Shown here: piece after piece, positions 45,766 through 62,315 of the stretch
Layout: each line of letters opens with the position of its first letter
Position numbering within the stretch: position 1 is the stretch's first letter
NCBI GenBank assembly: GCA_033764955.1
Contig: JANRIL010000029.1
Location: 1 to 64,000 of the forward strand
Direction: 5' to 3'
DNA length: 64,000 nucleotides
Source of the DNA: Cyanobacteriota bacterium
Lineage (GTDB): Bacteria > Cyanobacteriota > Cyanobacteriia > Thermostichales > Thermostichaceae
The notes under the pieces: generated by a model
Database searches by the model: none
What the model saw: the letters and a program-made list of their open reading frames with translations, nothing else
Told to the model about the DNA's origin: nothing
Translations under genes and position numbers: made by a program

Positions 45766-47613
45766 CTAGCCCGCTACAGCCCAAACATTGCGCCATTTGA
45801 CAGTTCCTGAAGCAGCCAATAACCAACGCCGACAAATGACCTCCTCATAAATTGGGGATTGACCCTCACGCAAAATCACATATTTGTAAGCAATAAATTT
45901 CCCAGCACTTTCATGAAAAGGAATTTCGTTGAACCAGGTATTAGCATTAATATATTCAAGACGAAAGGCATGATTAACATTCCAATTTCCCAACTCAGGG
46001 CAATCTCCAATGACTGCCACCACCTCTCCAGGATGGGTGACGTAACCATTGAGCTGGGCACGCACAATCATCTGCCCTTCTACACGATCTCCAATGTAGT
46101 TCAAGATGATCATTTCCTGCGAATTTAAGGAAAAGTTATATAATTTATGACCATGAACCATAAAGGATCGCCCCGTTAAAATACAGATATATTCCCCATC
46201 TTCAAGTTCACAATCAACTTGAGAAAGAGTAATAGGCTGACCCTTATTAAGCGCTACAAAACAACGCGAATCTCGGTAGGAACGAACATAACAATAAATG
46301 TCGGGAGTAATATATTTTTGATGATGAGCGCCCAACGATACGGCTGGATTGAGGCGGCGTAGCTTAGATAGTAAACGTAAATCTTGACAAATTTGGGTGT
46401 CGGGATCCCAATGCTCCATCATCGGTCGATTGTAGGGATCCATCCCTCCATTGGTATCATTATGCAGATATTGCTCGGTTCCATAATAAATACAAGGGAT
46501 CCCGCGTGTTGTCATCAATAGTCCCACCGCCAACCGTAATCGCTGGGGATCGGGGTTGAGACTTTGAAAACGAGGCATGTCGTGATTATCAATAAAGGTA
46601 ACTAACTCGGTAGAGCTGTTGTAAAGATAATCAAGATCTAGGATGTTTTGAATGCGATAAAATCCAGCAGGATGGTTCTCTGCCAGAGCCGAACGGATCC
46701 CTTCACACAAACCAAAATCTAAAATGGACATGCCCGATTTGTTGGCAAAATTAACCGAGTGTGGATCTTGAGGCTTACTGAACCCCCACTCACCAAAAGC
46801 AAAAACAGAGGGCTTATGGGTTTGAATATCCGTGTTAAACTCCTGCCAAAACCACAGATGCATGTGTTTAACTGTGTCAATTCGTAGGGCATCTACCCCT
46901 CGATCTAGCCAAGATTTGATGGCCGTTTTAATATAGTGACGAAATTCGGGATTGTTTTCATCAAAATCAGCAAGTCCCGCCATCTCACAGTTCACCAATT
47001 GCCATTGATCTTGCCAATCCGTAATTTCACCATTGTGATGATACCAATGATTCACATCGTTATAAAAATCCGCAATCAGTTCCCCATCATCATAGAGACG
47101 CCCTTTTTGCCCATTCACATCGGGGCTACTGTGATTACAAACAATATCTAAAATTAGCTTAAGACCCCGATCATGCATTGACTGCACCAAAACATCAAAT
47201 AGATTACAGCGTAGAACACAGTTATCCTGATGAAGAGGAACAAATCGAGGATTAATTCGCTTGAAATCTTTAGTCCAATACCCATGCATAGCCGCATGGC
47301 CGAACTGTAGTTCTTCCACCTGTTCAAAGACAGGTGAAATCCAAATAGCCGTTACTCCAATTCGCTTGAGATAATCCAATTGATCAATTAAGCCCTGAAT
47401 ATCTCCACCCCAGTACTTCCCCCAATCCTGTCGATGAGGATCGTAAAGCTCAGGATTGGGTCCAGGATTATTGGAGGGATCCCCATCATGAAAACGATCA
47501 AGGATGACAAAATAGATTGTTTCTTGGCGAAATTCAATATCACGGGTGAATAAGAACTCCAGGGCTTGCGTTTCAGATAAAGAAGTTTGAAAAAGCATAT
47601 CTTGTGAATTCAT
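45766..47613 (-). CDS. GH13 cyclodextrin glucanotransferase/alpha-amylase-like enzyme with C-terminal CBM20
   Basis: DRFHDGD, YWGGD, HGYW, DIVCNH, RIDTVKH, FGEW, FIDNHD, GDCPELGNW; no signal peptide. Confidence 0.9.
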   Translation of the reverse strand: MNSQDMLFQTSLSETQALEFLFTRDIEFRQETIYFVILDRFHDGDPSNNPGPNPELYDPHRQDWGKYWGGDIQGLIDQLDYLKRIGVTAIWISPVFEQVEELQFGHAAMHGYWTKDFKRINPRFVPLHQDNCVLRCNLFDVLVQSMHDRGLKLILDIVCNHSSPDVNGQKGRLYDDGELIADFYNDVNHWYHHNGEITDWQDQWQLVNCEMAGLADFDENNPEFRHYIKTAIKSWLDRGVDALRIDTVKHMHLWFWQEFNTDIQTHKPSVFAFGEWGFSKPQDPHSVNFANKSGMSILDFGLCEGIRSALAENHPAGFYRIQNILDLDYLYNSSTELVTFIDNHDMPRFQSLNPDPQRLRLAVGLLMTTRGIPCIYYGTEQYLHNDTNGGMDPYNRPMMEHWDPDTQICQDLRLLSKLRRLNPAVSLGAHHQKYITPDIYCYVRSYRDSRCFVALNKGQPITLSQVDCELEDGEYICILTGRSFMVHGHKLYNFSLNSQEMIILNYIGDRVEGQMIVRAQLNGYVTHPGEVVAVIGDCPELGNWNVNHAFRLEYINANTWFNEIPFHESAGKFIAYKYVILREGQSPIYEEVICRRWLLAASGTVKWRNVWAVAG

Positions 47614-47679
47614 GATATTTCCTATGATGATCTTGAGAAACTTGCTACTAATTATATGGATCCCGCTTCAGAAGACAAA

Positions 47680-49338
47680 CTATTGAGGATTTGGCAAATA
47701 ATGTACAGCCAGCATGGTAATATCATCAAATTGTTCTGCTTCACCAATATGCTGTCTCACAGATGTATCAATCATATCAAGTAATTGACTGGCAGAACCT
47801 ATAGGTTGACTGACTAAACTGACTAATTGATGGCGAGTAAACAACTCATGATCAAGGTTATGGGCATCTGTTACCCCATCCGTATAGGCTAATAAAATAT
47901 CGCCCGGTTCCAACTGGATTTGCTCGATTTCAAAAGTTACTCCTGGTAATACCCCAAGAGCCGGTCCCGTTGCGTTCAGCCGCTCCTTAATTTCTCCAGA
48001 AGCGCTAATGTGAAACAAAGGTTCATGCCCCCCATTAATATAAAAAATTATGCCCGTGGCCGGATCTAAAATGCCAAAAAAGATAGTCGCAAACATATTT
48101 GATCGGCTATGAGTATTGGCAATATAATCATTCGTTAATGTCATGGCATTGACGAGGGCTTGGGTGCCAGCGGAGGGAAGTAGTCGCTTTCGCCTGCCTG
48201 CCGTTGAGGATCCACCAGGATGATCATCACTCAAGACATCCAGCAAGCTCAGAGAATAATTCTGTTGCGATAAACTGCGAATCAAGCTGCGAAATAGAGC
48301 CATAAATAGGGCGGCTCCCACTCCTTTGTCGCAGACATCAGCAATCACTAAACCGATTCGCCCTCGGGATAACTCAAAGACATCATAAAAGTCCCCAGCC
48401 ACATTCCGAGCAGGGCTAAATCGAGCCGCCACTTCCCATCCTTCGGGATGGGGCAAACTTTCGGGTAAAAAATCTGATTGAATCTGTCTAGCTATTTGGA
48501 TATCTCGCTCATAGCGTAATAAGTCTTTTTCCATTAGGAGAGAGCGTTCTCGTTCTTCGTCTGCTTGCCGACGCTGGGTAATATCTTCTGTGATGGCAAA
48601 TCCATGCAAGATCTCCCCCTCTGGATTCCTCCCTACAAAACCAATCACTTCTACCCAAATTGGACGACCATCTTTATGAAGATACTGTTTCTCTAGAAAG
48701 AAGGAATCTCGCTTGCCAGACAATAGTTCACGATAATATAACTCGGTTTGTTGCCGATAATCAGGATGAGTAATCTCTTGAAAAGATTTTTGAATGAGTT
48801 CTGCTTCCGTGTATCCTACTAATCTTTCATAGGCAGGATTACAGCGCAAGATTTGAGCGTTTGAGCCTGTAATTGCAATGCCAATGGGAGATTGCTGAAA
48901 AAGCAAGCGAAACCGCTGCTTCTCTTGCTGTAAATCCGCCTGAGCTTTGGCACGAATTTGACCCTCTATCAAAAGCTGATGATGAAGTTGATCTAAAGTT
49001 TTTTTGATATCTTCTTGAGAGCGCTTTAGATCGGTGATGTTAGCTGCATAAGCATCAATATTTAATGTGTCTGCGGAAGTGCTAAATGTAAAAAGATAGA
49101 CGTTATCTTGGGTGAAGACCTCGAGATTAGGGAGGGCAGATCCAGTTTCAAGAGGTTGAAGAATTGACCTCAAAAAATCTACGGGGCACCTTTCTCCAAT
49201 AGTCGCTCCCCATGTTTGCAAAAGATGGTGTGCAGGCTGATTAGCATACAAAATAATCCCTTCCTTAGATATCTGTAATGCTGGATCTGGATATCGAGCA
49301 AGACTAATCAACTCTGGGGAAATCAAAGATTCTGACAT
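47680..49338 (-). CDS. PAS-domain SpoIIE/PP2C phosphatase (IcfG-like)
   Basis: PAS (ITHPDY, KDGRPIWV); VAGDFYD, ADVCDKG, NGGHE, YTDGVTDA, QFDDIT. Start moved to MSESL. Confidence 0.92.
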   Translation of the reverse strand: MSESLISPELISLARYPDPALQISKEGIILYANQPAHHLLQTWGATIGERCPVDFLRSILQPLETGSALPNLEVFTQDNVYLFTFSTSADTLNIDAYAANITDLKRSQEDIKKTLDQLHHQLLIEGQIRAKAQADLQQEKQRFRLLFQQSPIGIAITGSNAQILRCNPAYERLVGYTEAELIQKSFQEITHPDYRQQTELYYRELLSGKRDSFFLEKQYLHKDGRPIWVEVIGFVGRNPEGEILHGFAITEDITQRRQADEERERSLLMEKDLLRYERDIQIARQIQSDFLPESLPHPEGWEVAARFSPARNVAGDFYDVFELSRGRIGLVIADVCDKGVGAALFMALFRSLIRSLSQQNYSLSLLDVLSDDHPGGSSTAGRRKRLLPSAGTQALVNAMTLTNDYIANTHSRSNMFATIFFGILDPATGIIFYINGGHEPLFHISASGEIKERLNATGPALGVLPGVTFEIEQIQLEPGDILLAYTDGVTDAHNLDHELFTRHQLVSLVSQPIGSASQLLDMIDTSVRQHIGEAEQFDDITMLAVHYLPNPQ

Positions 49339-49444
49339 GTGGGTTCTCGTTGCACGACACACTTTACTATTGGAATTGAGATGAGACGTCAATCTCAAAC
49401 AAATTTACGGCTACGAACGAAAATATGCGGATTCAGTTCAGTGC

Positions 49445-49897
49445 TCAAGACGAAGTGGATAAAGACCTACGCTGCATTCGAAAAATATTGCGATTGCGTT
49501 GATTAATGCGTTCATAGGCAAACTCATCTACACCTTCTATTGCTAAGTAAATTCCCAATCCGCCAATCGGTCGCTGAGCCAAAGGAATGTCAATAGTTTG
49601 TATTTCTTGTGGAACCGCCTGTCGGGGATCATAGGCAGCCCCTGTATCTTCAATCACGATGGTCAGATATCCTTCTGTCACGCTTGCTTCCAAATAAAGG
49701 GATCCCTGTGTATCTGTCTCTTCATAGGCGTGGGTAATGATGTTGGTGGCAATTTCGTCCACAGCCAGACGCAAATTATAGATTGCCTTTTTATCAAGAC
49801 CCGCGATGCTCCCAACCTGCTTAACAAAATCAGCAACATATTGAAGTGCCTCCAGGTTACCAGGAAGAGTTAATGAGTGTACGTTCTGCATGGGCAT
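49445..49897 (-). CDS. RsbW/SpoIIAB-like anti-sigma Ser kinase
   Basis: LAVDEIATNIITHAY, EDTG..YDP, RPIGGLGIYL. Confidence 0.9.
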   Translation of the reverse strand: MPMQNVHSLTLPGNLEALQYVADFVKQVGSIAGLDKKAIYNLRLAVDEIATNIITHAYEETDTQGSLYLEASVTEGYLTIVIEDTGAAYDPRQAVPQEIQTIDIPLAQRPIGGLGIYLAIEGVDEFAYERINQRNRNIFRMQRRSLSTSS

Positions 49898-50085
49898 CGC
49901 TCCCGAAGTATAAGGATAATCTGATGAAACTAAATTGTGTAAAATTTATTTACTACTAAGCAATCATGTATGTTTGATCTATAGGTTACTGGTAAATAGA
50001 ATGTGCTGATATTAATCATTGCTAAAAATATAGAAGTTAACTAAACTTGTCAGGGTTGGATAGGCTTCTGAATCAATTGTTTTCT

Positions 50086-52071
50086 CTAAAACCTCTCGAA
50101 AATCGAGTTATTTTGCTTAATGGCTAACATAGTAATGTCATCATATTGAGCAGTTTCCCCAATATAGGTTTTCAATTCTGCTAGGATCTTATCTAAAAGC
50201 TGACGAGCTGTTAGAGTTTCTGTTTGAACTAGAGCTTCTAGCCGTTTTCGTCCATATAGTTGCTTGGTTTGGTTACGGGCATCTGTGACACCATCGGTAT
50301 AGCCCAACAGCAGATCTCCTGACATCATTTGTAGCTCCTTGATTTCAAATTTTGCTTCCTCACTGGAAAACATTCCTACTGCTGGTCCAGTTGAATCTAG
50401 CTGAGTTTTTATTTGACCGTTCTTACCCAAAACAAATAAGGACTCATGACCACCATTAATGTAAACAATTTTGCCAGTTCCAACATCTAGGACGCCAAAG
50501 AAAAGAGTAGCAAACATTCCTGACTGACCATGATTATTAATGATATAGTCATTAGTTAGCTTTACTGTATTCAACACAATGTTATGAATGGGACTCACTG
50601 AGGTATGACGAGTAGTGTCCTGACCTCCAGTTTTGCCCCCTCCATCCATCAATCGATCTAAAATTTGTAGAGGGTAAGTTCCTTTAGAAAAGGTGCGAAT
50701 CAGTGTACAAAACAAAGCCATAAACATCGCCGCCGGAACTCCCTTGTCGGTTACATCTCCAATGACAATCGCATACAGATCATTGCGAATATGAAAGGTA
50801 TCGTAGAAGTCTCCCGCTACTTCTCGCGCTGGTTGAAATGACGCCTCAAACTCCCAGCCCGTGAGGGTTGGTAATGTCTTGGGTAAAAACTGATTTTGAA
50901 TGTCTCGTCCTTGCTGAAGTTCCGTTTGAGTCGAAGCTAATTTAACTTGTACTTTCAATAGTGTTTGCAACTGTTCTGCCATCTGATTAAATGAGTCCGC
51001 CAATAAACCAAGCTCATCTTTTCGAGTAACAGTTACACGGTAGCTCAAATTGCCGCGGGCAATATTTTGGGATCCCTCCACCAAACTAAGAATGGGCTTG
51101 ACCAAATGACTTGCTAAGAGCGATGTGAGAAGGGTTAAAGCGAGCACGGCTATTATAGCGAGACTAACAGTAAACAAAGCTAACCAACGCATTCCGACTA
51201 TAATTTCTTGAGCCTGTTGAAGAATAACCACTCCCCATCCCTGGGGAAGTGAAGTTGTAAAAGCCAGCCATGTCACATGGGCATCATCCCGAAACTCGAA
51301 TAGCCCTGTCTCCCCTTCCAGTAATCTTTTGACCGGTGGATAATCAGCTAGATTCTGATTCTTGCCAATGTCAGTGGGGCGTGGATCTAACAGGGTTATT
51401 CCCTGATTGTCAACTAATAAAATATGTCCACTGTTATCCCAATTAATTTCTCTCTGAAAGTTAGCGATTTCTTCTAGACCGTTACAAACAATTAACCATT
51501 CAACCTCTTCTTGTGTTGGGATTAATGCTGCCGTGCTAGGGGGTGATATGGATTGTGGGTTTAGTAAAGTAGCTGAACAAATATCTAGATTTGCAGTAGC
51601 GGCAATTAGAATGGGCTGAATGGTTGTATAGTTCCTGGCCGCTTTAGCAGACTGAATTAGGGTTTGAACCTGCTCGGTGGTTAGCGGAGAGTTAGGTTGG
51701 TTCGCAGCCTGCCCCTCAAGCATCACTGTGCCTGTGGAATCAACCTGCATGACTCTCACAATTGTTGGATAAACAGATAGAAAATTTTGAATCGTTTGCT
51801 GGCGCTGCTCTCGATTCTCACCCCTTGACATAAACTGACGACTCAAGAGTGCGAGTTGTAAACGGTTTTGCTGATGCCAGTTTTCCAAATCTAGAACAAA
51901 GTCTTTGGCTTTCTCTTGGAAACGCTCCTGAGCTTCTTGCAAAAGTAGTCGTTCTGCCTGCCAAGTTAAAATTCCAACCGGCACTAAAATTGCCGGGATC
52001 CCCAGCGCCAAGATCAACACTGTCAGACGATAGCGCAAAGAATAGAATCGCCCAGGTTGATGAGTTATCAT
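50086..52071 (-). CDS. Membrane Cache-HAMP SpoIIE/PP2C phosphatase (IcfG-like)
   Basis: Two TMs flanking a Cache-like sensor (ILLVDNQG...WGVVI), HAMP (DELGLLADSFNQM), VAGDFYD, GDVTDKG, YTDGVTDA, QYDDIT. Confidence 0.92.
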   Translation of the reverse strand: MITHQPGRFYSLRYRLTVLILALGIPAILVPVGILTWQAERLLLQEAQERFQEKAKDFVLDLENWHQQNRLQLALLSRQFMSRGENREQRQQTIQNFLSVYPTIVRVMQVDSTGTVMLEGQAANQPNSPLTTEQVQTLIQSAKAARNYTTIQPILIAATANLDICSATLLNPQSISPPSTAALIPTQEEVEWLIVCNGLEEIANFQREINWDNSGHILLVDNQGITLLDPRPTDIGKNQNLADYPPVKRLLEGETGLFEFRDDAHVTWLAFTTSLPQGWGVVILQQAQEIIVGMRWLALFTVSLAIIAVLALTLLTSLLASHLVKPILSLVEGSQNIARGNLSYRVTVTRKDELGLLADSFNQMAEQLQTLLKVQVKLASTQTELQQGRDIQNQFLPKTLPTLTGWEFEASFQPAREVAGDFYDTFHIRNDLYAIVIGDVTDKGVPAAMFMALFCTLIRTFSKGTYPLQILDRLMDGGGKTGGQDTTRHTSVSPIHNIVLNTVKLTNDYIINNHGQSGMFATLFFGVLDVGTGKIVYINGGHESLFVLGKNGQIKTQLDSTGPAVGMFSSEEAKFEIKELQMMSGDLLLGYTDGVTDARNQTKQLYGRKRLEALVQTETLTARQLLDKILAELKTYIGETAQYDDITMLAIKQNNSIFERF

Positions 52072-52102
52072 AAAAGTATTAGGAAAAAGTATTAAAGAAA
52101 GA

Positions 52103-54085
52103 TTATCGTTTGCTATCGGAAGCTTGGGCTAACCAGCGCACGGCCAACATTGTAATGTCATCAAATTGATTAGCCGTATCAATATAAGCCAGAACCTGCG
52201 ATTCAATTCGTCCCAAAAGGCTGGCAGCAGAGTCTACGGGTTCATTTAATAAATCTAGTAAACGAGACTCTCGAAAGAAAGCTTTATTAGGGCTGCGTGC
52301 TTCTGTTACCCCATCGGTATAGGCTAAAAAAATATCCCCAGGCTGCAACTGAATATTGAGAATTTCGTACTTTTCGCGGGGCAGAAATCCTACGGCGGCT
52401 CCCGATGGGGCAAGGCGAGCTTTGATCTTTTGCTGATGATCTAAAATAATAGGCGGTTCATGTCCCCCATTGATGTAGGTGAGTAAGCCAGTTTCGGGAT
52501 CCAAAACCCCAAAAAACAGCGTGGCAAACATATTAGCATTGCTGTGGTTATGCACAATATAATCATTGGCTAGCGAGACTGCTTTGAGAGGAGCAGTATA
52601 ACTAAGCTCTGCCAACTGGGCTTGGAAGCCGGAGTCACTCATTTGTGGCAAATTATCAGAACTGGCAATCGTTCGGAGGGCTAATAAATAGGATTGCTCA
52701 GCAAACACCCGGATCAAACTGCGAAATAAAGCCATAAATAAAGAGGATCCTACCCCTTTATCAGAAACATCCCCCACCACTAAGCCAATACAATCCCCTG
52801 GCAAAGGGAAGATATCGTAAAAATCTCCGGCCACATCACGAGCGGGACGAAAGCAGGTGGCAAATTCCCAATTTTTCCGCTCTGGCAAATCCTGTGGTAA
52901 AAACTCTTTCTGAATTTGTGTGCCAATTTCCAGTTCCTTTCGTAGGGCACGCAAATAACTTTCTGCTGTATTCTTGGCCTGTAACAACTCAATCTCGGCT
53001 TGCTGACGGCGAGTAATGTCATGCAGTACAACCAGATAGCCAGCCAGTCGATTATAGTCATCCCGCAGCGCGGCCAAATGCATCTCATAGTGATGGGGAT
53101 GCTCATCCCGATCAAAAGTCCAGATGGGTAATGTTTTATAAGTATCTGCTTTGGTTAATAAAGAGGTATTGGTAATTAAACGGTATTGCTCTAATAAATC
53201 AGGTTGATTAATAAATAGAGCTGAAATAGCTTCTCCAACTATCTCTGATTTTTGCCGATTGAGAATACGCACCCCAGATGGATTGACATCCATAATCCGG
53301 TGCTGCCTATCTAAAACGATGATCCCATCACCAAGACTTTTGACCACGGAGTCATAAACAATTGGGATAATATCAACTGATGGATCAACTAAAAAAGTTA
53401 GGGTAACAGCCGGCCCAATCTGGAAAATATCTCCGTTTTGCAGAGATTTTTGCTTGATTCTCTGCCCTTGATATAAAAGCCCATTCGCACTGTCAAGATC
53501 AATAATTTCGTAACCCTCTTCCGTCCTCTGAATTTGGGCATGACGAGCTGAAACTATTGGTAAATCAATGCTGATATCACAGGCGGGATCCCGACCCACT
53601 GTGATCACGATTCCCTTTAGCGGGAAATTGTGAACATCTTGGGGAGTTGTTACTCGTAATGCGGATAAAGGTTCATCATTAAGCTGAATAGTCTGATATC
53701 CAATGTTATTGGCAACATTGGTTGCTCCAGGATCCAAAATCATCTCGGTGGATTCTAGATCCTCTGTCAGCAAATCATTGTGAAAACATAGGTTAAAGGA
53801 ACCAATAGAAATAATGTCTTGATCTGTTAGGGAAAGAGCCTGACCGGGAGCAATCCGAACTTTATTGACCTGAGTTCCGGTTTTGCTGTGCAGATCGGTA
53901 ATTAAATATTGGTTTTGTTCCCATACCAAGCGGGCATGATAGCGAGACACCTCCGGGGCGTCCAAAACCAGTTGGTTGTTGAGGGCACGACCAATCGTAA
54001 CTTCGCAGGTTGCTTGATCAAGTAGCAAGCTCTGTTGCTCTTTGCCATCCGAATAGAGGATCAAACAGGCTACGGATTTGGGCAT
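52103..54085 (-). CDS. FHA-FHA-PAS SpoIIE/PP2C phosphatase
   Basis: FHA1 TIGR..VSRYHA..S.TGT; FHA2 VGRD..VSARHA..SANG; PAS (DGIIVLD...HDIT); VAGDFYD, GDVSDKG, YTDGVTEA, QFDDIT. Confidence 0.92.
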   Translation of the reverse strand: MPKSVACLILYSDGKEQQSLLLDQATCEVTIGRALNNQLVLDAPEVSRYHARLVWEQNQYLITDLHSKTGTQVNKVRIAPGQALSLTDQDIISIGSFNLCFHNDLLTEDLESTEMILDPGATNVANNIGYQTIQLNDEPLSALRVTTPQDVHNFPLKGIVITVGRDPACDISIDLPIVSARHAQIQRTEEGYEIIDLDSANGLLYQGQRIKQKSLQNGDIFQIGPAVTLTFLVDPSVDIIPIVYDSVVKSLGDGIIVLDRQHRIMDVNPSGVRILNRQKSEIVGEAISALFINQPDLLEQYRLITNTSLLTKADTYKTLPIWTFDRDEHPHHYEMHLAALRDDYNRLAGYLVVLHDITRRQQAEIELLQAKNTAESYLRALRKELEIGTQIQKEFLPQDLPERKNWEFATCFRPARDVAGDFYDIFPLPGDCIGLVVGDVSDKGVGSSLFMALFRSLIRVFAEQSYLLALRTIASSDNLPQMSDSGFQAQLAELSYTAPLKAVSLANDYIVHNHSNANMFATLFFGVLDPETGLLTYINGGHEPPIILDHQQKIKARLAPSGAAVGFLPREKYEILNIQLQPGDIFLAYTDGVTEARSPNKAFFRESRLLDLLNEPVDSAASLLGRIESQVLAYIDTANQFDDITMLAVRWLAQASDSKR

Positions 54086-54164
54086 GGGTGTTAGGAGGTG
54101 AGTGAGCAGGGATCCCTAAACAGGTGGGGAGGAGGATCGGAGCCGATGTTGCCCCTCCGCTATG

Positions 54165-54596
54165 CTAAGCGGGATCCCGATAGACAACAAAAATATTCCG
54201 GTTGCGATTGCCCTCCCGTTCATAAATAAACCGATTTACCCCTTGGATGGCTAAATATACCCCCAAGCCGCCAATGGGTCGATCCGCCAGCGGTTTGAGG
54301 ATCGTCTCTTCCTCAGTCGCAATCGCTCGACTCGGGTCGTAGGTAATTCCAGTGTCCTCAAGATGAATGGTCAGACTTTTGGCATCCAGAATTGCGGCGA
54401 TCTCAATATTGCCTTCGCAGCCTGCCTCAGCATAGCCGTGGGTGATGATGTTGGTGGCAATTTCATCCACCGCCAGCCGCAAACGGTAAGTAGCTCGTGA
54501 ATCCAACCCAGCCTCCTGAGCGGCCATCTTAATATAGTCAGCAATGGGATCCAGAGCGTCTAGCGTACCGGGCAAAACCAAGGCTTCCATAGCCAT
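54165..54596 (-). CDS. RsbW/SpoIIAB-like anti-sigma Ser kinase
   Basis: LAVDEIATNIITHGY, EDTG..YDP, RPIGGLGVYL. Start uncertain (54590-54611). Confidence 0.9.
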   Translation of the reverse strand: MAMEALVLPGTLDALDPIADYIKMAAQEAGLDSRATYRLRLAVDEIATNIITHGYAEAGCEGNIEIAAILDAKSLTIHLEDTGITYDPSRAIATEEETILKPLADRPIGGLGVYLAIQGVNRFIYEREGNRNRNIFVVYRDPA

Positions 54597-54725
54597 AGCC
54601 TCAAAATCCAAGGAAAGAAGGCAAGGGTTCGGTCATTCCATCCACAGGGGGGATTGGTCTGGGGTTGAGAAAAACCGCCATTGCTTGAAACGCAACCTCA
54701 GCCCCCCAGACTGCTCCGCTCGATT

Positions 54726-55040
54726 TCAATAGCTATCAGCGAGGATGACGCTGCGATCAAATCCCGTTTTGGAAAGAGTTTCTAACACCCCTTCTTGGGC
54801 ACCCACCACATAAATATCAACGTCACTGCCCATTTTTTGTTTGGCAAAGATCAAGACTCGCAATCCGGCACTCGCCATATATTCTAAGTTGGCCATCAAC
54901 AACACTAATCGCTTGGGTTGGTGGGTAGCAGCTTGCTCCACTGAGTCTTTGAAGGTGTTGGCCGAAGCGGCATCCAACTCACCTGTGAGGGTAATGAGAG
55001 CGGCATCGTCTTTAACTTCTAAGCTGCTGGTAAAAGCCAT
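54726..55040 (-). CDS. STAS anti-sigma-factor antagonist (RsbV/SpoIIAA-like)
   Basis: LTGELDA, YMASAGLRVL; AGGAG RBS. Confidence 0.92.
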   Translation of the reverse strand: MAFTSSLEVKDDAALITLTGELDAASANTFKDSVEQAATHQPKRLVLLMANLEYMASAGLRVLIFAKQKMGSDVDIYVVGAQEGVLETLSKTGFDRSVILADSY

Positions 55041-55113
55041 GATCACGATCTCCTAAAAGAAAAGATTGCTTGAATGTGTCCGATTTCCCTCGAGATTACC
55101 TAGGAAAATCGTG

Positions 55114-57231
55114 CTAGCGCCCCACTAAGATGGCCACGGCACGACCTCCCAACAGGAGGGTATTTTGATCGGAGAGAGGCGGTTCCTCCCCCACCCCCCA
55201 AATGTCATCGGGATAGTTGACGCTGGTATTGGCAACGATATGCCATTGCACCCCCTCAGGCAGACGGGGCAACTGAAAGGGTAGAGCATCCCAATAGACG
55301 TTAAGCGCTACATAGATAAAGTCATCGTTGGCGGATCCCTCCTTGGCGTGTTTGCCAGAGAGCATAAAAGCGATGACCCGACTGCCTTCTGACCAATCGG
55401 CGTTCCATGCCTGTGTGCCATGCCAAGTGATATCGGCATAGCCTGTGTTCATGTAGTCCACATTACGGAAGTGTTCTCGATTTCTGAGGATGGGGTGAGC
55501 TTTGCGAAAAGCAATACAACGACTAAAGAATCGGAACAGCTCAGGATTTTCGGCCAGCAAATGCCAATTTAACCAGTTCAATTCGTTATCGTGGCAGTAG
55601 GTGTTATTGTTGCCTTGCTGGGTTCTTCCCACTTCATCTCCCATCAAAATCATGGGAACTCCCTGGCTGACCATTAGCATGGCTACGGCGTTTTTGATCT
55701 GGCGTCTTCGCAAAGTTTGAATACCCTGATCTTCGGTTGGTCCCTCCCAGCCACAGTTCCAACTGTGATTATCATTGCCCCCGTCGTTGTTATTTTCTCC
55801 GTTGGCTTCGTTGTGCTTGCTGTTGTAGGAAACCAAGTCCATCAAGGTGAAGCCATCATGACAAGTAATAAAGTTGACGGAAGCTGTGGTTCCCCGTCCC
55901 CGATAGAGATCAGGGGATCCCTGAAGCCGTTGCCCCACATCCCCGATCCGTCCAGTATCCCCTTTCAAAAAGCGGCGTATCCCGTCTCGATATTTGCCGT
56001 TCCACTCCGCCCAGCGCCCGTAGGCGGGAAAGGATCCCACTTGATAAAGACCCCCCGCATCCCAGGCTTCGGCAATCAATTTGCACTTGGACAAAACCGG
56101 ATCAAAAGCCAAGGCTTCCAGCAGGGGTGGATTGGCCAGCGGATACCCCAACGGATCCCGACCCAAAATCGAGGCCAAATCAAAACGGAACCCATCAATG
56201 TGATATTCGGAAGCCCAATAGCGCAAACATTCGATCACCATGCTGCGGACAATCGGATTGTTGCAGTTGAGGGTGTTGCCACAGCCACTGAAATTAAAGT
56301 AGTACCCCTCGGGAGTAAGCATGTAATAGGTTTGGTTGTCAATACCCCGATAGGAAATAGTCGGGCCATATTCATTGCCTTCGGCGGTATGGTTAAAAAC
56401 CACATCCAAAATGACCTCAATACCATTTTGATGCAGATCTTTGATCAAATTTTTCAGCTCATCCACCTGCATCCCCAGCTTTCCGGTGGCGGCATATCCG
56501 GCTTTGGGGGCAAAGAAACCAACGGTACTGTAGCCCCAATAGTTAAGCAATTGTTCTCCCGTTGTGGGATGCAAACGACTATTCTCAAATTCATCAAATT
56601 CGTAGATGGGCATTAACTCAATGCAGTTCACTCCCAGTTCTTTAAGATAGGGAATTTTTTCACGGATCCCTGCATAAGTTCCCGGATGTTTTACCCCGGC
56701 AGAGGGGTGACGGGTAAAGCTACGGACATGCATCTCATAGATAATCAGATCCTCCATCGGTAACTCTAATGGACGATCTTCTTCCCAGTCAAAATCCTCC
56801 AAAACTAGGCGGGCGCGATGCTGGTAGCTATCCTGCCAATTGGGGGTAACACCCCAGATATCCCGTCCGCCGATTACCCTAGCGTAGGGATCCATCAAAA
56901 TTTTACTGGCATCAAACCGTAGTCCTCGCCCTGGGTCAAAGGGGCCATCCATGCGGTAGCCATACTCCAGCGTCTCGACATCTAGATCGAAGACGACCAT
57001 GGTAAAAACGCTGCCGATGCGGAACTGATCGAGGAAGGGAATTTCGACAAATGGCTCCGATTCGTGCTTATTGAATAACACCAACTTGCAGGATTGAGCC
57101 GCGCAGGAAAAGATCGAGAAATTGACCCCTCCTGGTACTAATGTGGCTCCAAAGGGAAATGGTTTGCCCGAACGCAACCGATAGCCTTTGTAGGTGTGGG
57201 TGGGATAAAAATCAATCCGTTGCGCTTCCAT
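55114..57231 (-). CDS. glgX: Glycogen debranching enzyme (isoamylase)
   Basis: GVNFSIFS, IYEMHVR, NYWGY, DVVFNHTAEG, DGFRFDLA, AEAWD, TCHDGFTL, GNNNTYC. Confidence 0.96.
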   Translation of the reverse strand: MEAQRIDFYPTHTYKGYRLRSGKPFPFGATLVPGGVNFSIFSCAAQSCKLVLFNKHESEPFVEIPFLDQFRIGSVFTMVVFDLDVETLEYGYRMDGPFDPGRGLRFDASKILMDPYARVIGGRDIWGVTPNWQDSYQHRARLVLEDFDWEEDRPLELPMEDLIIYEMHVRSFTRHPSAGVKHPGTYAGIREKIPYLKELGVNCIELMPIYEFDEFENSRLHPTTGEQLLNYWGYSTVGFFAPKAGYAATGKLGMQVDELKNLIKDLHQNGIEVILDVVFNHTAEGNEYGPTISYRGIDNQTYYMLTPEGYYFNFSGCGNTLNCNNPIVRSMVIECLRYWASEYHIDGFRFDLASILGRDPLGYPLANPPLLEALAFDPVLSKCKLIAEAWDAGGLYQVGSFPAYGRWAEWNGKYRDGIRRFLKGDTGRIGDVGQRLQGSPDLYRGRGTTASVNFITCHDGFTLMDLVSYNSKHNEANGENNNDGGNDNHSWNCGWEGPTEDQGIQTLRRRQIKNAVAMLMVSQGVPMILMGDEVGRTQQGNNNTYCHDNELNWLNWHLLAENPELFRFFSRCIAFRKAHPILRNREHFRNVDYMNTGYADITWHGTQAWNADWSEGSRVIAFMLSGKHAKEGSANDDFIYVALNVYWDALPFQLPRLPEGVQWHIVANTSVNYPDDIWGVGEEPPLSDQNTLLLGGRAVAILVGR

Positions 57232-57393
57232 GCTTAGCCCTCATCGCCGATGACCAATCCTCAATCAACTTGTAGAGCCAGAATAGGGGGTGACCTATTC
57301 CAGGCGGGATCCCTTGCGAAGGGCTGGCGTTACCTTAAACGAGAGTAAGGTAGGCGGCTCGCACCCATCTGGGGGGGATCCCCACAGGCTAGC

Positions 57394-57729
57394 CTAACTC
57401 TGGAGAGCCGCTAGCCCTGAGTCTACGGTGTCGCTGATGGTAAAAAACTTTAGGAATCCCGTTACCGACATGGTGTCTTTGATATCTTCCGACAGCCCAA
57501 CCAGGGCAATCTGACCGTTATTACTGGTCATTTGTCGGTAGAGCAGCAGCAGCACCCGCAAGCCAGCACTGGACATATAGGTGACGTGGGTCATGTCCAA
57601 CAGCATCTTGCCCCCTGCTTGGGTGAGGGGAACAATCTTTTCCTGTGCCATGGGAGCCGTTTTGCCGTCAATTTCTCCCTCTAGCTCGACTAAGGTGACT
57701 TGATCGACTGTTTTGACTCTGACATCCAT
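57394..57729 (-). CDS. STAS anti-sigma-factor antagonist
   Basis: LEGEIDG, YMSSAGLRVLL, VTGF; AGGAG RBS. Confidence 0.92.
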   Translation of the reverse strand: MDVRVKTVDQVTLVELEGEIDGKTAPMAQEKIVPLTQAGGKMLLDMTHVTYMSSAGLRVLLLLYRQMTSNNGQIALVGLSEDIKDTMSVTGFLKFFTISDTVDSGLAALQS

Positions 57730-57798
57730 GACACTTCTCCTGCTGTTTCTGATCGGCTCACGGGTGAGGTTGGGGATCCCTAAAGCTGGGCTTGCCGC

Positions 57799-59616
57799 CT
57801 AGTCTACTGGCTCAATCCGTACCTTTACTTTAATGGAGTCTTTGGCATCTGGCAGTTGTACCGTCAGCCCTGCCGCATCAAAGTTGTGGTAGGGATCCCC
57901 ATCGATAGTGACGGATTCTAGACGGATGCTGCCGGGGGGCAAGATATCCGGCTGCACCCGCAACACCCGATCCTTGAAGCCATTGGGATGGGGCTTAAAG
58001 TGGAAGTCCATCGGCTGCTTGGTAATCAAGAGGTTGGTATAGACAGAGGCCAAATAGCACAACTCGGTGGAGTGATAGCCGCTCATGGAGTGACTGCCCT
58101 TCAGCCGTTCGGTGCCCAAGAGGTAGGGGATCCCGTTGGCCAAGACGTTAAAGTAAACCGCTCCATCTTGATGATCGAGGAAGAAGGCATTGTAGAAGGC
58201 CGCCGCTTCCCGACCGTGACGGCGGTATTCATCCTTTTTCAGGCAGCCTGCCAAGATCAAGTAGGCAAGGATAGCTTGTTCCTGCTGCCACCAGGCTTTG
58301 CGATCGTGCCAGGCATGGCGATAGCATTTCTGCCCTGGGGCGAGTTCCCGCTCCATCACGTCATACCAGCCCCCCCGCTGTTGATCACTCCCTACAGCAG
58401 GCATGATCTCGGCAATTTTTTCCGCCAAGTTGACGTAGAGATCTTTGGGCTTGAGGCTCTGCATCCGCATTAAATTCCAGGCAATTTTCAGGTTGTGCCC
58501 CACGACCGCCCGGTTTTGCTGCCAGCCCCACGTTTGATCTTTTGACCAGTCATCAAAGAATTTTTCCTGGACAAATGGGCTGTGATCGTAGTCAGGAAAA
58601 TGGGTGGCAATCGTGTCGAACGTATATTCCAAAAAGTCGGCGTATTTGGGATCCCCTGTGGCTAGCCACAGGTTAATCAGATAGGCAGGGGCGTGATCTC
58701 CCACGGAGTTCCAATTTTTGCGGGCTTTGTTGCGTCCCAAGGATTCCGCATGGGGATCCAGGGTGATCGGGTCAATGTGGGAATAGTAGCCACCCTTTTC
58801 TTTGTCTAGGAAAAAGTTATCAAACAGCTTGACCGTTAATTCGGCATCCCGCAGGATACGCGGATCCCCGGTCACTCGATAAGTTTGGATGGGGCCTGCC
58901 AAAGCATAAATTTGTTCATAGGCTGGAATGGCATCATAGTCATCTCCAAACTCGGAGGCAAATACTTTAGTTTCGCGCCGACCACTCACATCAATGCCGT
59001 GATACCAGTAGACAATTTCTTCGTCAGGATCATAGAAACGCATGTGATCCCGCAAATATTCTGTGCCTTTTTCTGCTGCATCCAAAAAGCGATCATCACC
59101 TGTCATCAAATAAGAGCTAGCAAAGCCATAGACTAGCCGTGAAATTGTGTCAGTTTCTTGACGGTGATCCCCCTTTTTCTCGCCGGTTAGAGCCAGAATG
59201 GTTCGATAATTCGTGTAGTCAACGGGTTGATCTTGAAACTGGGCGTGTAGATAAAAATCGGCGATTTGAGCCACTTGATCGACCCACCAGTTGGGCTTCT
59301 CAAAGCGATAGTCTGTATCAGTGCGACCTAAAAAGACAAGGTGTTTAATATCAAATTGATATCCCGCCGGCTCTGGATAAAAAACTCCATAGGCAAAAAG
59401 ATAACGACCTGGTGTCAGCATTTGCCGCATCTGGCCAGTACAGTCCTGATAAGGTTCCCCTAGGTTATGTGCCAATTCCGCATAAGCATTGGCCGAGAAG
59501 TGCAGTTTGAAGTCCCGTCCATCGCTGGTTTTGACGGTGACCGCATCCTGTTCAGGATCAAACTGGGTCACATAACCCGCAACCAAATCGGAAAATGAAA
59601 ATTGAATGTCATTCAT
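57799..59616 (-). CDS. AGE (N-acylglucosamine 2-epimerase) superfamily protein with N- and C-terminal extensions
   Basis: SRLVYGFA, KGGYY, GHNLKIAW, GGWYD, WWQQEQA, GYHSTE (alpha6-barrel His motifs). Confidence 0.85.
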   Translation of the reverse strand: MNDIQFSFSDLVAGYVTQFDPEQDAVTVKTSDGRDFKLHFSANAYAELAHNLGEPYQDCTGQMRQMLTPGRYLFAYGVFYPEPAGYQFDIKHLVFLGRTDTDYRFEKPNWWVDQVAQIADFYLHAQFQDQPVDYTNYRTILALTGEKKGDHRQETDTISRLVYGFASSYLMTGDDRFLDAAEKGTEYLRDHMRFYDPDEEIVYWYHGIDVSGRRETKVFASEFGDDYDAIPAYEQIYALAGPIQTYRVTGDPRILRDAELTVKLFDNFFLDKEKGGYYSHIDPITLDPHAESLGRNKARKNWNSVGDHAPAYLINLWLATGDPKYADFLEYTFDTIATHFPDYDHSPFVQEKFFDDWSKDQTWGWQQNRAVVGHNLKIAWNLMRMQSLKPKDLYVNLAEKIAEIMPAVGSDQQRGGWYDVMERELAPGQKCYRHAWHDRKAWWQQEQAILAYLILAGCLKKDEYRRHGREAAAFYNAFFLDHQDGAVYFNVLANGIPYLLGTERLKGSHSMSGYHSTELCYLASVYTNLLITKQPMDFHFKPHPNGFKDRVLRVQPDILPPGSIRLESVTIDGDPYHNFDAAGLTVQLPDAKDSIKVKVRIEPVD

Positions 59617-59801
59617 GAGTCATTTCTCTCGGAGTAATGAACGGCAAGCTACGGTCTAGATGGGGACAAAAAAGTAGGATAGTTACAGGTTAAGTACAAT
59701 CGGCCAAGGGCAAATCAACGGCTGATGATCTCTGATGATTAAATTAGGATCCTTCACATCAGTCAGGGAACAATAACCACGCAAAGCTCAAGATAATTGC
59801 T

Positions 59802-60374
59802 CTACTTTTTCTTCTCCAGGATATCAATAATCTGACGAGCAAAAAGATGACAGTGATTCCCCGTACGACCCGTTACCAAATCACCATCCACCACCACATC
59901 TTTATCTGTATAAATAGCTCCCATATTGATCACATCTCCATGGAGATTATTGTGACAAGTGACGGGGCGACCTTTGACCAATTCGGGAGCGGGAGAAACC
60001 AGCCACATTCCATGACAAATAATCCCCTTCAAAATGCTTTTTTCTGCGAAAGCACGCTTCAGAAATTCGGTGGCAGGAGAAAGTTTACTGACATCCTCGG
60101 TATAGCGGAGTCGATCCGATACCATCGCGGAAGGAACGATAATAGCCGCAAAACTCTTGAGGGTTTCATCATCCATATTCTCAAAACTTTCATGACACTC
60201 AAACGGCGCATGATATTCATGTCCCTTAAAGGTTAAATAGGATTGCCCCCACAAACGAGTTAGAAAATGCAGATCAGCCCCTTCTTCAGGAAATCGGTAG
60301 TGATAATACCAAATTTCATGCTCGTAGAAATCACTTTCCAGCAGAATGCCTATTTTTTTACCTTTTAGCTTCAT
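59802..60374 (-). CDS. DJ-1/PfpI family protein
   Basis: GKKIGILLE, conserved Glu (HE), nucleophile elbow ICHG, DVVVDGDLVTGR. Confidence 0.9.
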   Translation of the reverse strand: MKLKGKKIGILLESDFYEHEIWYYHYRFPEEGADLHFLTRLWGQSYLTFKGHEYHAPFECHESFENMDDETLKSFAAIIVPSAMVSDRLRYTEDVSKLSPATEFLKRAFAEKSILKGIICHGMWLVSPAPELVKGRPVTCHNNLHGDVINMGAIYTDKDVVVDGDLVTGRTGNHCHLFARQIIDILEKKK

Positions 60375-60454
60375 GTGTCAAGGGATCCCAAATATTTTGT
60401 GGATAATGCTGCAAAGTTGAAGATGATGCCAACAACCGACTTGAGGAAGTGACC

Positions 60455-60477
60455 GGGGAGTTAGCTGCTAACCCCCC
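60455..60477 (-). other. Intercistronic stem-loop
   Basis: Minus strand GGGGGGTTAG-CAG-CTAACTCCCC forms a 10-bp stem with one G-U pair; no U-tract follows. Confidence 0.5.
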
Positions 60478-60527
60478 TAAATAACCTGCTTTTTGCACGC
60501 CAGTCTATGATTCTTGACTACCAACAA

Positions 60528-61052
60528 CTACTTAGGCTGACTCGCCGCATGAAGAGTAATCTTCTCCAGATAACTAAGATCCCAGCCCCGCGCCTTAAAC
60601 TCAGAAGTTGCATTTTCCAGTAGTCCAAACGCATCCACAAATCCGACCTGTTTTCCAGATTCGTCAAGCTGAATCAATGGACCCATCACATGAAACAGAG
60701 TAATCATGGTTTCATCACCTAAGATTTCTAGGGTGTGACTATCCCCAGCCGGCTCATAGACAAAAGCCCCTGGCTCAGCTACCCAATCATACTCTTTGTA
60801 TTTCCACCGTCCTTGCAGGCAATACCCGACAACTGGAGCTGTGTGATGGTGGAGTGCTAACCCTGCTCCAGGTTCACACTTTAATAGTGTGGCAAAGGAG
60901 TTATTGACCAGATTAAACATCAAGAATTTGTTGGAAGTTCCATTCTCGTAAGGAAGCCAAAACCCATCCTCTGCTAAAATGGCATACCCATCAAAATAGT
61001 TGTTCTTCTTAAAGAAGAATTCAGCAGCGTGTGTGCTATAAGTGCCGCTCAT
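60528..61052 (-). CDS. Cupin, 2,4'-dihydroxyacetophenone dioxygenase/ChrR-like
   Basis: HHH, G.W.Y.E..W.A..G.FVYEP.G..HTL metal-binding motifs. Start moved to MSGTY. Confidence 0.85.
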   Translation of the reverse strand: MSGTYSTHAAEFFFKKNNYFDGYAILAEDGFWLPYENGTSNKFLMFNLVNNSFATLLKCEPGAGLALHHHTAPVVGYCLQGRWKYKEYDWVAEPGAFVYEPAGDSHTLEILGDETMITLFHVMGPLIQLDESGKQVGFVDAFGLLENATSEFKARGWDLSYLEKITLHAASQPK

Positions 61053-61220
61053 GGTTCTCAACCTCTCTTGTCGTGAGTTGTCGTAAAGTACCTTGCAAAT
61101 CCTGTAATGATGCCCAGATTTTAATGAGGTCTGGGCTGCTCTCAATCTTTTTCAACAGGGTGATTTAAGAGTACTGTGCGTAGCTACGCTCCGTATCGAG
61201 CATAGTTATCCTGATAAAAG

Positions 61221-62315
61221 TTAGCTGGATAATCCTAGTTTTTGTCTAAGCAAATCAGCAATTTCATCATAGCCAAATTTGATCGCCATATCGAGGGGAG
61301 TATTGCCATCATGACCAATCAAATCCAGTTTAGGGATCCCAGATTCGATCAATATCTTGGCTGCTTTGAGACTGCCTTGCCAAAGACTATCATGCAATGC
61401 TGTATATCCATTGTATGGACCTTGGGCATCTACAACTTCAGCAAAATCCTTGTGCTGAGCTAACACCTCTACCACATCGGCATGTTGCATATAGCAAGAT
61501 TTATGGATAGGAGTAGCTAACATAAAAGCATCCACAGCATGTAGGTCAGCTCCCGCTTCTAGAAGCATTTTGACAACCTCCGTTTGCCCCATCGTCGCGG
61601 CAAATAGAAGGGGAGTTTGCCCATCAAAAGCAGTACTCTCAATCGGTGAGGGAACATTTACATCCTCTCCGGCTGCGATCAACTGGCGGACTGTTTCAAT
61701 CTGTTCTTCGGCAGTCAACTTGCCATCAAAATTGCCAATGGCCGCATAGATTTTTTGAGCCGATTTTTTGGCGGCGAGTCGCTGATCATAAGCATCAAAC
61801 AAGGCGGTCATCTGCTTAATTTGCTCAGCTCGCAACGGATTAGTGGTCGCAATGGTAGTGGTATCTACACCAAAGGTAATCAACTCACGGGGGCTAAAAC
61901 GAATGTCGGCGTTGATATAAGGACTAATACTCTCCTGCTCTAGCAAAAAAGCCACCATATCCACTTGGCGATACCAGACTGCACTCCAGAGAGCAGTCAT
62001 CCCATTGGTATGGCATTGTAAGTTGATGGGGGCTCCTGCTTTTAACAAAGTGGCGGCCACGCCCACATTGCCTCCCTGGGCGGCTAAATGCAGTGCAGAG
62101 ATACCGATTACATTGTCCAAAATATTGACATCGGCTCCCCGTTCTAAGAGTAAATTAACGATATCCAATAGTCCCAAGCCAGAAGCCGCCATGAGAGGGG
62201 TTCGTCCCCCACTGTTCTTCTGATCGGGATCCGTCCCCGCATCCAAAAGAGCTTGAACTTGAGCAACATCTTTAGACCAGACAGCCTCATGTAAAGGAGG
62301 TTGGGTTAGATTCAT
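61221..62315 (-). CDS. Ankyrin repeat protein
   Basis: Repeated GRTPLMAA, SALHLAA, GMTALWSA, GQTPLLFA, GYTALHD, GNTPLDMA. Confidence 0.93.
   Translation of the reverse strand: MNLTQPPLHEAVWSKDVAQVQALLDAGTDPDQKNSGGRTPLMAASGLGLLDIVNLLLERGADVNILDNVIGISALHLAAQGGNVGVAATLLKAGAPINLQCHTNGMTALWSAVWYRQVDMVAFLLEQESISPYINADIRFSPRELITFGVDTTTIATTNPLRAEQIKQMTALFDAYDQRLAAKKSAQKIYAAIGNFDGKLTAEEQIETVRQLIAAGEDVNVPSPIESTAFDGQTPLLFAATMGQTEVVKMLLEAGADLHAVDAFMLATPIHKSCYMQHADVVEVLAQHKDFAEVVDAQGPYNGYTALHDSLWQGSLKAAKILIESGIPKLDLIGHDGNTPLDMAIKFGYDEIADLLRQKLGLSS

Follow-up and report, generated by a model that had tools for sequence, protein, structure and literature searches.

We describe a run of 13 successive open reading frames (ORFs) on the minus strand, at 62315..45766 of a 64,000-nucleotide stretch of cyanobacterial DNA (the window, positions 1-64,000 of its contig; the host genome is 3.8 Mb and 89% complete), in which sugar enzymes are encoded together with STAS-domain proteins, RsbW-type kinases and PP2C phosphatases. 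The evidence presented here suggests that one of the STAS proteins docks on, and may activate, a neighbouring enzyme of the AGE superfamily. The ORFs are separated by gaps of about 31-188 bp, and the domain names given to them by a first-pass annotation agree with Pfam and NCBIfam profile searches, which verified the domain set of all 13. Following ankyrin and cupin genes, the run consists of a DJ-1/PfpI protein with an ICHG motif (59802..60374; Pfam and NCBIfam), a core partner of the next product, the 605-residue AGE-superfamily enzyme of the Slr1855 type (57799..59616; Pfam GlcNAc_2-epim and a fold match); STAS1, of the Slr1856 type (57394..57729; Pfam and NCBIfam); a cassette-type GlgX, of the Slr1857/GlgX2 type (55114..57231; an isoamylase by TIGR02100, 712 bits against a cut-off of 641); STAS2, of the Slr1859 type and recognised by its signature residues (54726..55046, probable start ATG at 55040); RsbW-type kinase 1 of the Slr1861 family (54165..54611, probable start 54590; HATPase_c_2); an FHA-FHA-PAS-PP2C phosphatase (52103..54085; FHA-FHA-PAS-SpoIIE); a membrane phosphatase with a Cache-like sensor, HAMP and PP2C domains (50086..52071; Pfam); RsbW-type kinase 2 (49445..49897; HATPase_c_2); a PAS-PP2C phosphatase (47680..49398, probable start Met21 at 49338; PAS-SpoIIE); and a GH13_2-like enzyme with CBM20 (45766..47613; alpha-amylase and CBM20 in Pfam).

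By every feature that can be tested in the sequence, the locus belongs to the icfG cassette family of Synechocystis. The icfG cluster of Synechocystis sp. PCC 6803, slr1852-slr1862, is described in PMC12329169 and PMC8670252 as the same run of AGE-like, STAS, GlgX, STAS, PP2C and RsbW-type kinase genes. The window has the AGE-STAS-GlgX-STAS order with an adjoining DJ-1 gene, a phospho-acceptor serine in both STAS proteins, and two Slr1861-family kinases with intact ATP-binding motifs (LAVDEIATNII and GGLG are kept in both). The published slr1857 primer encodes a cassette-type N-terminus, as in the window GlgX type, and the cassette kinase of genome G205, to which kinase 1 is 43% identical, has the Slr1861 residues given in PMC12329169 at the same numbers. 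The locus differs from the Synechocystis cluster by its doubled kinase and tripled phosphatase, the latter with FHA/PAS, membrane Cache-HAMP and PAS inputs; by a kinase that precedes the phosphatase; and by ankyrin and cupin genes upstream and an amylase gene downstream. The first-pass annotation had recognised the resemblance to icfG, although its further proposal of an undescribed system has to be withdrawn, the cassette being the known icfG cluster.

A survey of gene neighbourhoods, which the same annotation had proposed as a check, indicates that the core of the cassette is conserved. Named genomes were scanned with the window AGE protein and the best 80 of at least 597 stretches were examined; gene order was counted in loci with at least 3.5 kb downstream, and those that extend at least 8.5 kb in that direction, 54 in number, are referred to as long loci. 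Of the 69 related loci that reach far enough, 63 show the order AGE-STAS1-GlgX-STAS2 (64 loci if L058, whose STAS1 was recovered by a hidden Markov model (HMM), is added), which argues that the arrangement did not arise by chance. Among the examined loci and annotated plasmids (8 of 17 plasmid matches were opened) the cassette spans 13 phyla. Its distribution is patchy: AGE-type cassettes occur in 28 of 301 cyanobacterial genomes sampled and in 3 of 22 in the host's family, as well as in 12 other phyla.

One line of evidence for an enzyme as the partner of a STAS protein is a complex prediction for the window AGE and the window STAS2, each with a 63-row alignment drawn from the same loci. The pair scored 0.75, compared with 0.00 for the best of three controls; of 157 solved complexes 116 attain the mark applied to this score, as do 2 of 215 mismatched pairs, and these counts are only approximately valid for the present case. 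The AGE-STAS2 runs agreed with one another in at least 98% of contacts, with a predicted local distance difference test value (pLDDT) of at least 85 for the partner. On the STAS2 side the predicted interface comprises Ser59, R63, F67, K69, Q70 and T94-F96 (ORF numbers), where Ser59 (54870-54872) is the phospho-acceptor according to alignment and interface. On the AGE side it comprises mainly hairpins within residues 191-220 (58957..59046), selected by predicted contact and conservation and including R193, F194, D196, D198, E199, E215, K217 and F219, with an additional predicted contact at residues 283-286 (58759-58770). In the model Ser59 contacts AGE D196, D198 and E199, and a phosphate on this serine would therefore face acidic residues. 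The STAS2 face predicted to dock on AGE corresponds to the kinase-binding face described for Ssr1600 in PMC12329169, while the AGE patch appears to be formed by loops beside the putative active site, just before the conserved 221-231 loop and Y233. AGE and STAS2 are also the halves of a natural fusion, and the model supports their binding without proving it. PDB searches with AGE yielded nothing nearer than distant epimerases, those with STAS2 yielded common anti-sigma antagonists, and no comparable complex was seen; searches of the open literature, a coverage that leaves aside subscription journals, Nakamura 2024 and supplements, showed no report of a contact between STAS and AGE or of an activity of Slr1855.

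Natural fusions provide another line of evidence. In two of the surveyed loci the AGE protein ends in a STAS domain, and when the AGE-STAS junction of a Scytonema protein was used as a query, the best 120 of 1685 matches all covered both parts, with a precomputed STAS domain in 118 of these 120. The fused domain is of the STAS2 type: R63 and Q70 are present in 100% and K71 in 96% of 123 fusions, and HMM scores agree. The AGE active site is invariant in 114 fusions, and G95 of STAS2 is replaced. All four genomes that carry only a fusion are without an Slr1861-type kinase and an IcfG-type phosphatase, whereas an Slr1861-type kinase is present in each of the 27 genomes whose canonical AGE is free. 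The contact residues follow this division. Ser59 is found in 100% of 71 free STAS2 proteins, as against 69% Ser and 17% Thr in the 123 fusions, and AGE D198 in 100% of 62 free enzymes versus 5% of 114 fusions. A fusion from Gemmobacter has lost the serine and kept R63 and Q70; likewise, in two Streptomyces loci that have no linked kinase the only STAS gene left is of the STAS2 type, and in its product the serine is gone and R63 and Q70 are kept. In three cyanobacterial fusion loci (L033:12340-15449, L034:12472-15657 and L104:10472-13553) the place of the kinase and phosphatase is taken by a receiver-thioredoxin-reductase-like gene followed by a histidine-kinase-like gene, possibly a redox-based substitute control.

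Enzymes that appear to have parted from STAS2 serve as natural controls. In 20 divergent AGEs the active-site set is almost intact, and 27% of the conserved interface residues are kept versus 60% of other conserved non-helical residues. The two divergent AGEs with known context, in L103 and L113, have no STAS gene in the locus, and genome G249 has no STAS2 match. In L079 an AGE without a nearby STAS gene has an intact interface, and GlgX, STAS2 and kinase are encoded elsewhere in that genome.

Taken together, the predicted contact, the fusions and the covariation lead us to favour, with moderate confidence, the following reading of the icfG-type cassette. Unphosphorylated STAS2 would bind AGE through its phospho-serine face, which is also its kinase-binding face, and activate the enzyme; phosphorylation of Ser59 by the kinase would then break the contact and release STAS2. 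Binding is more likely to activate than to inhibit, because fusions and stand-alone STAS2 proteins persist after loss of the kinase and often of the serine. There is precedent in SiaC of Pseudomonas, which activates SiaD when unphosphorylated (PMC8457831), and according to PMC11619594, which cites Shi 1999 and Gonzalez 2001, deletion of slr1859 impairs growth on glucose at low carbon and deletion of slr1856 does not, a pair of phenotypes that fits the assignment of STAS2 to AGE. The most likely overall comparison is a Sia-type switch with a sugar enzyme as its target, maybe beside a sigma arm. STAS or STAS-like proteins also control enzymes in the Pseudomonas SiaABCD and HsbR/HsbA/HsbD and the Sinorhizobium BgrSTUWV systems (PMC8457831); their targets are diguanylate cyclases, in contrast to the carbohydrate-type enzyme here, and the systems are likened by described function only. 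No GGDEF domain was found by Pfam among the 13 genes.

Several observations weigh against the docking of STAS2 on AGE as an activating switch. The interface is largely lost in the fusions P0124 (3 of 13 residues kept) and L117 (6 of 13), genomes with only a fusion hold 2-4 other RsbW-family kinases, and known context covers only 2 of the 20 divergent AGEs. The fusions are related to one another, with at least two and at most four label changes, so that their counts overstate independence, and a fusion of operon neighbours can be neutral. A single-chain model of a fusion was rejected as proof of the interface, being uninformative for a STAS domain fixed to AGE in spite of a predicted TM-score (pTM) of 0.82. 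STAS1 shares many residues of the STAS2 face, the modelled pair was AGE-STAS2 alone, and close cousins can pass the mark used in complex prediction. Published biochemistry adds further difficulties: of the kinase substrates Slr1859 is the poorer one (PMC11619594, PMC12329169), no phosphatase is known for it (PMC11619594), and IcfG does not dephosphorylate it in vitro (PMC11619594).

The first two of these results, together with the survival of fusions without a cognate kinase and a model that gives contact and no direction, would also suit a STAS2 that is a constitutive subunit or an inhibitor of AGE, with phosphorylation irrelevant to the enzyme or acting in reverse. We consider this decidedly unlikely, since Ser59 and AGE D198 are invariant where a kinase is linked and relaxed where it is not, and a permanently fused inhibitor that could never let go would shut down an enzyme that keeps an invariant active site in 114 fusions.

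A different objection is that the cassette is a classical anti-sigma switch, in which the kinases sequester a distant SigC-like factor, the STAS proteins act only as antagonists and the enzymes are passengers on the same transcript. Ssr1600, an unlinked STAS protein, is bound and phosphorylated by Slr1861, and the level of RNA polymerase-SigC follows that of Ssr1600 (PMC12329169); NfsS, an RsbW-type protein of Anabaena, binds SigC and SigE directly (PMC13712970). The first-pass annotation regarded the output of the Synechocystis cluster as unresolved, and here it was overtaken by PMC12329169 (2025), which assigns Slr1861 as anti-SigC via Ssr1600. The host genome would have room for such an arm: it has 13 sigma-70 region-2 matches and six free STAS proteins, four of them outside the locus, and both window STAS proteins match TIGR00377. 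It also has four RsbW-like proteins and ten strong SpoIIE matches. On the other hand, PMC12329169 deduces SigC as the target from the amounts of holoenzyme and from an AlphaFold model; in the text consulted the Slr1861-SigC contact rests on that model and no binding assay, and Slr1856 and Slr1859 are listed with their target not known. Those networks (Slr1861/Ssr1600/SigC with PmgA, PMC12329169; NfsS/NfsR, PMC13712970) share the kinase family and the serine-on-STAS chemistry with the cassette; their outputs are sigma factors and Ssr1600 is unlinked, whereas here the evidence points to an enzyme as the partner of a linked STAS2. No linked sigma factor is present among the annotated recurrent neighbour families of the related loci, and STAS2 stays on or beside AGE after loss of the cognate kinase, often without the serine. 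The cassette is rare in cyanobacteria yet present in 12 other phyla. SigC is found in cyanobacteria. A cyanobacterial factor cannot be the common target of a cassette in 13 phyla, and we rate the anti-sigma switch as unlikely; the kinases may nevertheless bind a distant sigma factor in addition, the two outputs being compatible. The first-pass annotation had also stressed that the locus has no sigma factor. This is correct for the contig, on which there is no sigma-70 match (all 13 of the genome lie on other contigs), and it sets the locus apart from canonical RsbU-RsbV-RsbW modules with their co-encoded cognate sigma factor; it is normal for the cassette, as the icfG cluster is likewise without one in PMC12329169.

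The proposal that the switch acts on an enzyme rather than a sigma factor gains ground for STAS2 and AGE, and it fares worse for glycogen mobilisation, which the first-pass annotation had named as the output. If debranching were the main output, STAS1 or STAS2 would gate GlgX or the amylase, with AGE secondary. The window GlgX has an intact triad (D351/E388/D459), invariant in 76 of 76 cassette copies, and the subfamily has 51 specific residues, although Synechocystis GlgX2/Slr1857 is inactive alone in vitro (bioRxiv 2022.11.21.517384), a combination that would suit an enzyme in need of a partner. It is the only GlgX found in the 89% complete host genome, and one Streptomyces cassette adjoins glgB and a maltotransferase gene. 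Among the 13 loci without STAS1, 12 also lack a cassette-type GlgX, and this joint loss and the subfamily-specific residues suggest, at the level of sequence, a STAS1-GlgX pair parallel to STAS2-AGE. STAS1, whose Ser53/Ser54 are invariant in 80 orthologues, is likely either the partner of GlgX or a plain kinase sink. Against debranching as the main output, L080 retains GlgX without STAS1, L118 retains AGE, STAS2, kinase and phosphatase without GlgX or STAS1, deletion of glgX2 reportedly has no phenotype (bioRxiv 2022.11.21.517384), and an amylase gene lies near only 3 of 54 long loci. A search for STAS1-GlgX fusions gave two matches in 725 longer candidates, neither credible (P0271 is a frameshifted chimera, the other a STAS-receiver protein), which is a weak negative. 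We therefore consider glycogen debranching very unlikely as the principal output. As side observations, a single GlgX is likewise found in 14 other cassette carriers (E 1e-100), and the window GlgX query found none in the complete family members G001 and G019.

The last gene of the run is more likely to encode a non-cyclising GH13_2 amylase or glucanotransferase than the cyclodextrin glucanotransferase (CGTase) suggested initially. Its product has the triad D246/E275/D345 and no hydrophobic signal segment, and it aligns best with CGTases; its best structural match is CldA of Caldanaerobacter (6WNI, E 1e-117; PMC8760340). W200 is kept, while Ala212 and Gly277 stand where a reference CGTase has Phe216 and Met281, so that two of the three residues typical of cyclising enzymes, the central Tyr/Phe and one of the hydrophobic pair, are missing and a non-cyclising enzyme is favoured. 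It shares with CldA the triad and the Trp at the first hydrophobic site, and differs in an Ala at the central aromatic position, a Gly at the second hydrophobic site, the CBM20 and the missing signal segment. Such a gene, unlinked in most other cases, also adjoins the cassette in L043, L045, G063 and G299, and we rejected the second alpha-glucan enzyme as a distinctive trait of this locus.

By contrast, the two kinases and three phosphatases are distinctive, as the first-pass annotation had it. Kinase trees and AGE trees were computed with FastTree, and the phosphatase tree is a quick tree. Both window kinases, which share 55% identity, fall inside the cassette kinase tree, and the three phosphatases, with intact metal-binding motifs, fall in a 53-row cassette (IcfG) clade with a Shimodaira-Hasegawa-like approximate likelihood ratio (SH-aLRT) of 96, six other PP2Cs of the genome lying outside. 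Among the 54 long loci, 49 have one kinase, five have none and none has two; three phosphatase genes occur in one (L046) and two in three. In a comparison set of 36 genomes (32 picked for carrying AGE and four family members without it), none has two close Slr1861-type kinases (the second match in G062 has only 33% identity) and none has three IcfG-type phosphatases, while four have two.

The FHA phosphatase is sister to an FHA phosphatase of family member G006 (SH-aLRT 100), and the PAS-PP2C protein to a receiver-PP2C of G013/L042 (69% identity, SH-aLRT 98); kinase 1 groups with the G006 kinase and kinase 2 with that of G013/L042, with weak support (81 and 82). Because of these sister groupings the tail of the locus looks like two kinase-phosphatase modules, each carried singly by relatives, joined by a membrane sensor phosphatase that has no close relative. 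That the phosphatases arose by recent tandem duplication was rejected, given their 43-48% identity and the separate sisters that two of them have in related genomes. The membrane phosphatase has two hydrophobic segments, around residues 16 and 297, and its dCache match is weak, below the Pfam cut-off; no close relative was found in metagenomes, where the best match has 30% identity and others are HAMP-only. Through the three phosphatases the switch would receive FHA/PAS, membrane and PAS signals. A 1907-residue hybrid Ser/Thr kinase-AAA-GAF-PAS-histidine kinase is encoded at 12747-18470 of the window, and one may speculate that it is a source of phosphothreonine for the FHA phosphatase. Elsewhere, in cassettes of Omnitrophota and in one from Anaerolineae, a single protein combines kinase and phosphatase (about 14700-16300 in L035, L046 and L063; 5015-6607 in L075; L052:9704-11980), and G143, G151, G167 and G205 have a second IcfG-clade phosphatase away from the cassette, a candidate STAS2 phosphatase.

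Base composition hints that the tail has a history unlike that of the core. The GC content at third codon positions (GC3) is 0.36-0.40 in the tail and 0.51-0.63 from AGE to kinase 1, with 0.53-0.64 in six flanking genes, and both GC and GC3 are reduced at the two ends of the locus (45766-54085 and 59802-62315) relative to the AGE-to-kinase-1 core and the flanks, which suggests a mosaic. The first gene, after a 615 bp gap, encodes an accessory 364-residue ankyrin-repeat protein (61221..62315; Pfam Ank; GC3 0.43), and ankyrin genes lie close to 3 of 54 long loci. The accessory Cupin_7 protein (60528..61145, probable start ATG at 61052; Pfam) resembles 2,4'-dihydroxyacetophenone dioxygenase (PDB 5BPX, E 2.8e-19); its gene is near none of the 54 long loci and has one homologue in the shorter locus L052. 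Promoter-like sites in the locus are at chance level (31 observed, 29.3 expected), a terminator scan is at or below the level of shuffled sequence, and Rfam gives no match for the locus.

The AGE-like enzyme itself has an N-terminal beta domain, an (alpha/alpha)6 barrel and a C-terminal beta domain, and its conserved histidines place it in the AGE superfamily. Its closest fold match is Runella glucose-2-epimerase 8H1K (E 7e-19, 19% identity), and His308, His374 and His515 align with cellobiose 2-epimerase histidines, whose roles in enediol chemistry are described in PMC5726027. From these epimerases (8H1K, 3WKF, 5ZIG), which share the barrel and the three histidines at about 19% identity, it differs by the extra beta domains, an added conserved acidic loop and an invariant Lys377 in place of the usual Glu of GHxxE. 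It scores 27 and 22 bits against NCBIfam epimerase equivalogs with cut-offs of 800 and 600, and Atlas look-alikes of the N-terminal domain are only unnamed or DUF5666-like. A DJ-1 family gene is present in 71 of 86 clustered loci, AGE-DJ-1 fusions occur in the divergent clade (P0132, P0142-P0144 and a 51-member Atlas cluster), and recurrent AGE neighbours include glyoxalase-like, EthD/CMD, ThiJ-like, thiamine-diphosphate, GMC oxidase and SnoaL proteins. The fold, the enediol chemistry, the fusions and the neighbour families together allow the low-confidence proposal that the product of AGE is a sugar derivative with a reactive carbonyl, which DJ-1 and other neighbours process. The enzyme might act through an enediol on glucose or on the reducing ends of malto-oligosaccharides that GlgX and the amylase release, and might pass its product to DJ-1; STAS1 might do for GlgX what STAS2 would do for AGE. 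The divergent AGEs that lack STAS and are either fused to DJ-1 or encoded ahead of it (P0132, P0142-P0144, L103:5995-13983, L113:7914-13400) have loci that look like an uncharacterised small-molecule pathway; L103 also holds ThiJ-like, thiamine-diphosphate, EthD, two Nif11-like peptide and GMC oxidase genes.

Other neighbours were noted in passing. A MinD/ParA-family ATPase gene lies near the cassette in L098:14452-17803, L102:14694-15452, L018, L020, L023, L056, L062 and L069-L071, and in Streptomyces it is followed by maltotransferase and glgB genes. In 9 of 86 related loci AGE has a TMEM175-family gene in its vicinity, and the TMEM175 channel gene of the window (12221-12796) is distant from the cassette. 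A 310-residue ORF at 41121-42053 of the window contains a proline-rich segment in duplicate and matches nothing in Pfam or NCBIfam.

A broader generalisation, which we put forward tentatively as a possibility, is that in at least 13 phyla the cassette STAS proteins serve metabolic enzymes as activating subunits under the control of phosphorylation, where STAS2 would activate the lysine-bearing AGE (turning glucan-derived glucose into a reactive carbonyl for DJ-1) and STAS1 would activate GlgX2, with three sensors and two kinases wired in at the present locus. What the icfG cluster controls is a question dating from the 1990s, and the SigC answer of 2025 does not account for the constant association, across 13 phyla, of these STAS genes with these sugar enzymes; a single pair, a single surface and a single residue contact can now be named for it. 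If the proposed role of STAS2 is true, a partner switch would act directly on a carbohydrate enzyme, the enzyme outputs in the literature that we found being cyclic di-GMP cyclases. It would also explain the glucose phenotype of slr1859 and would suggest why purified GlgX2 is silent. The locus itself offers three phosphatases and two kinases as a naturally occurring set, and one of these phosphatases may be the missing phosphatase of STAS2.

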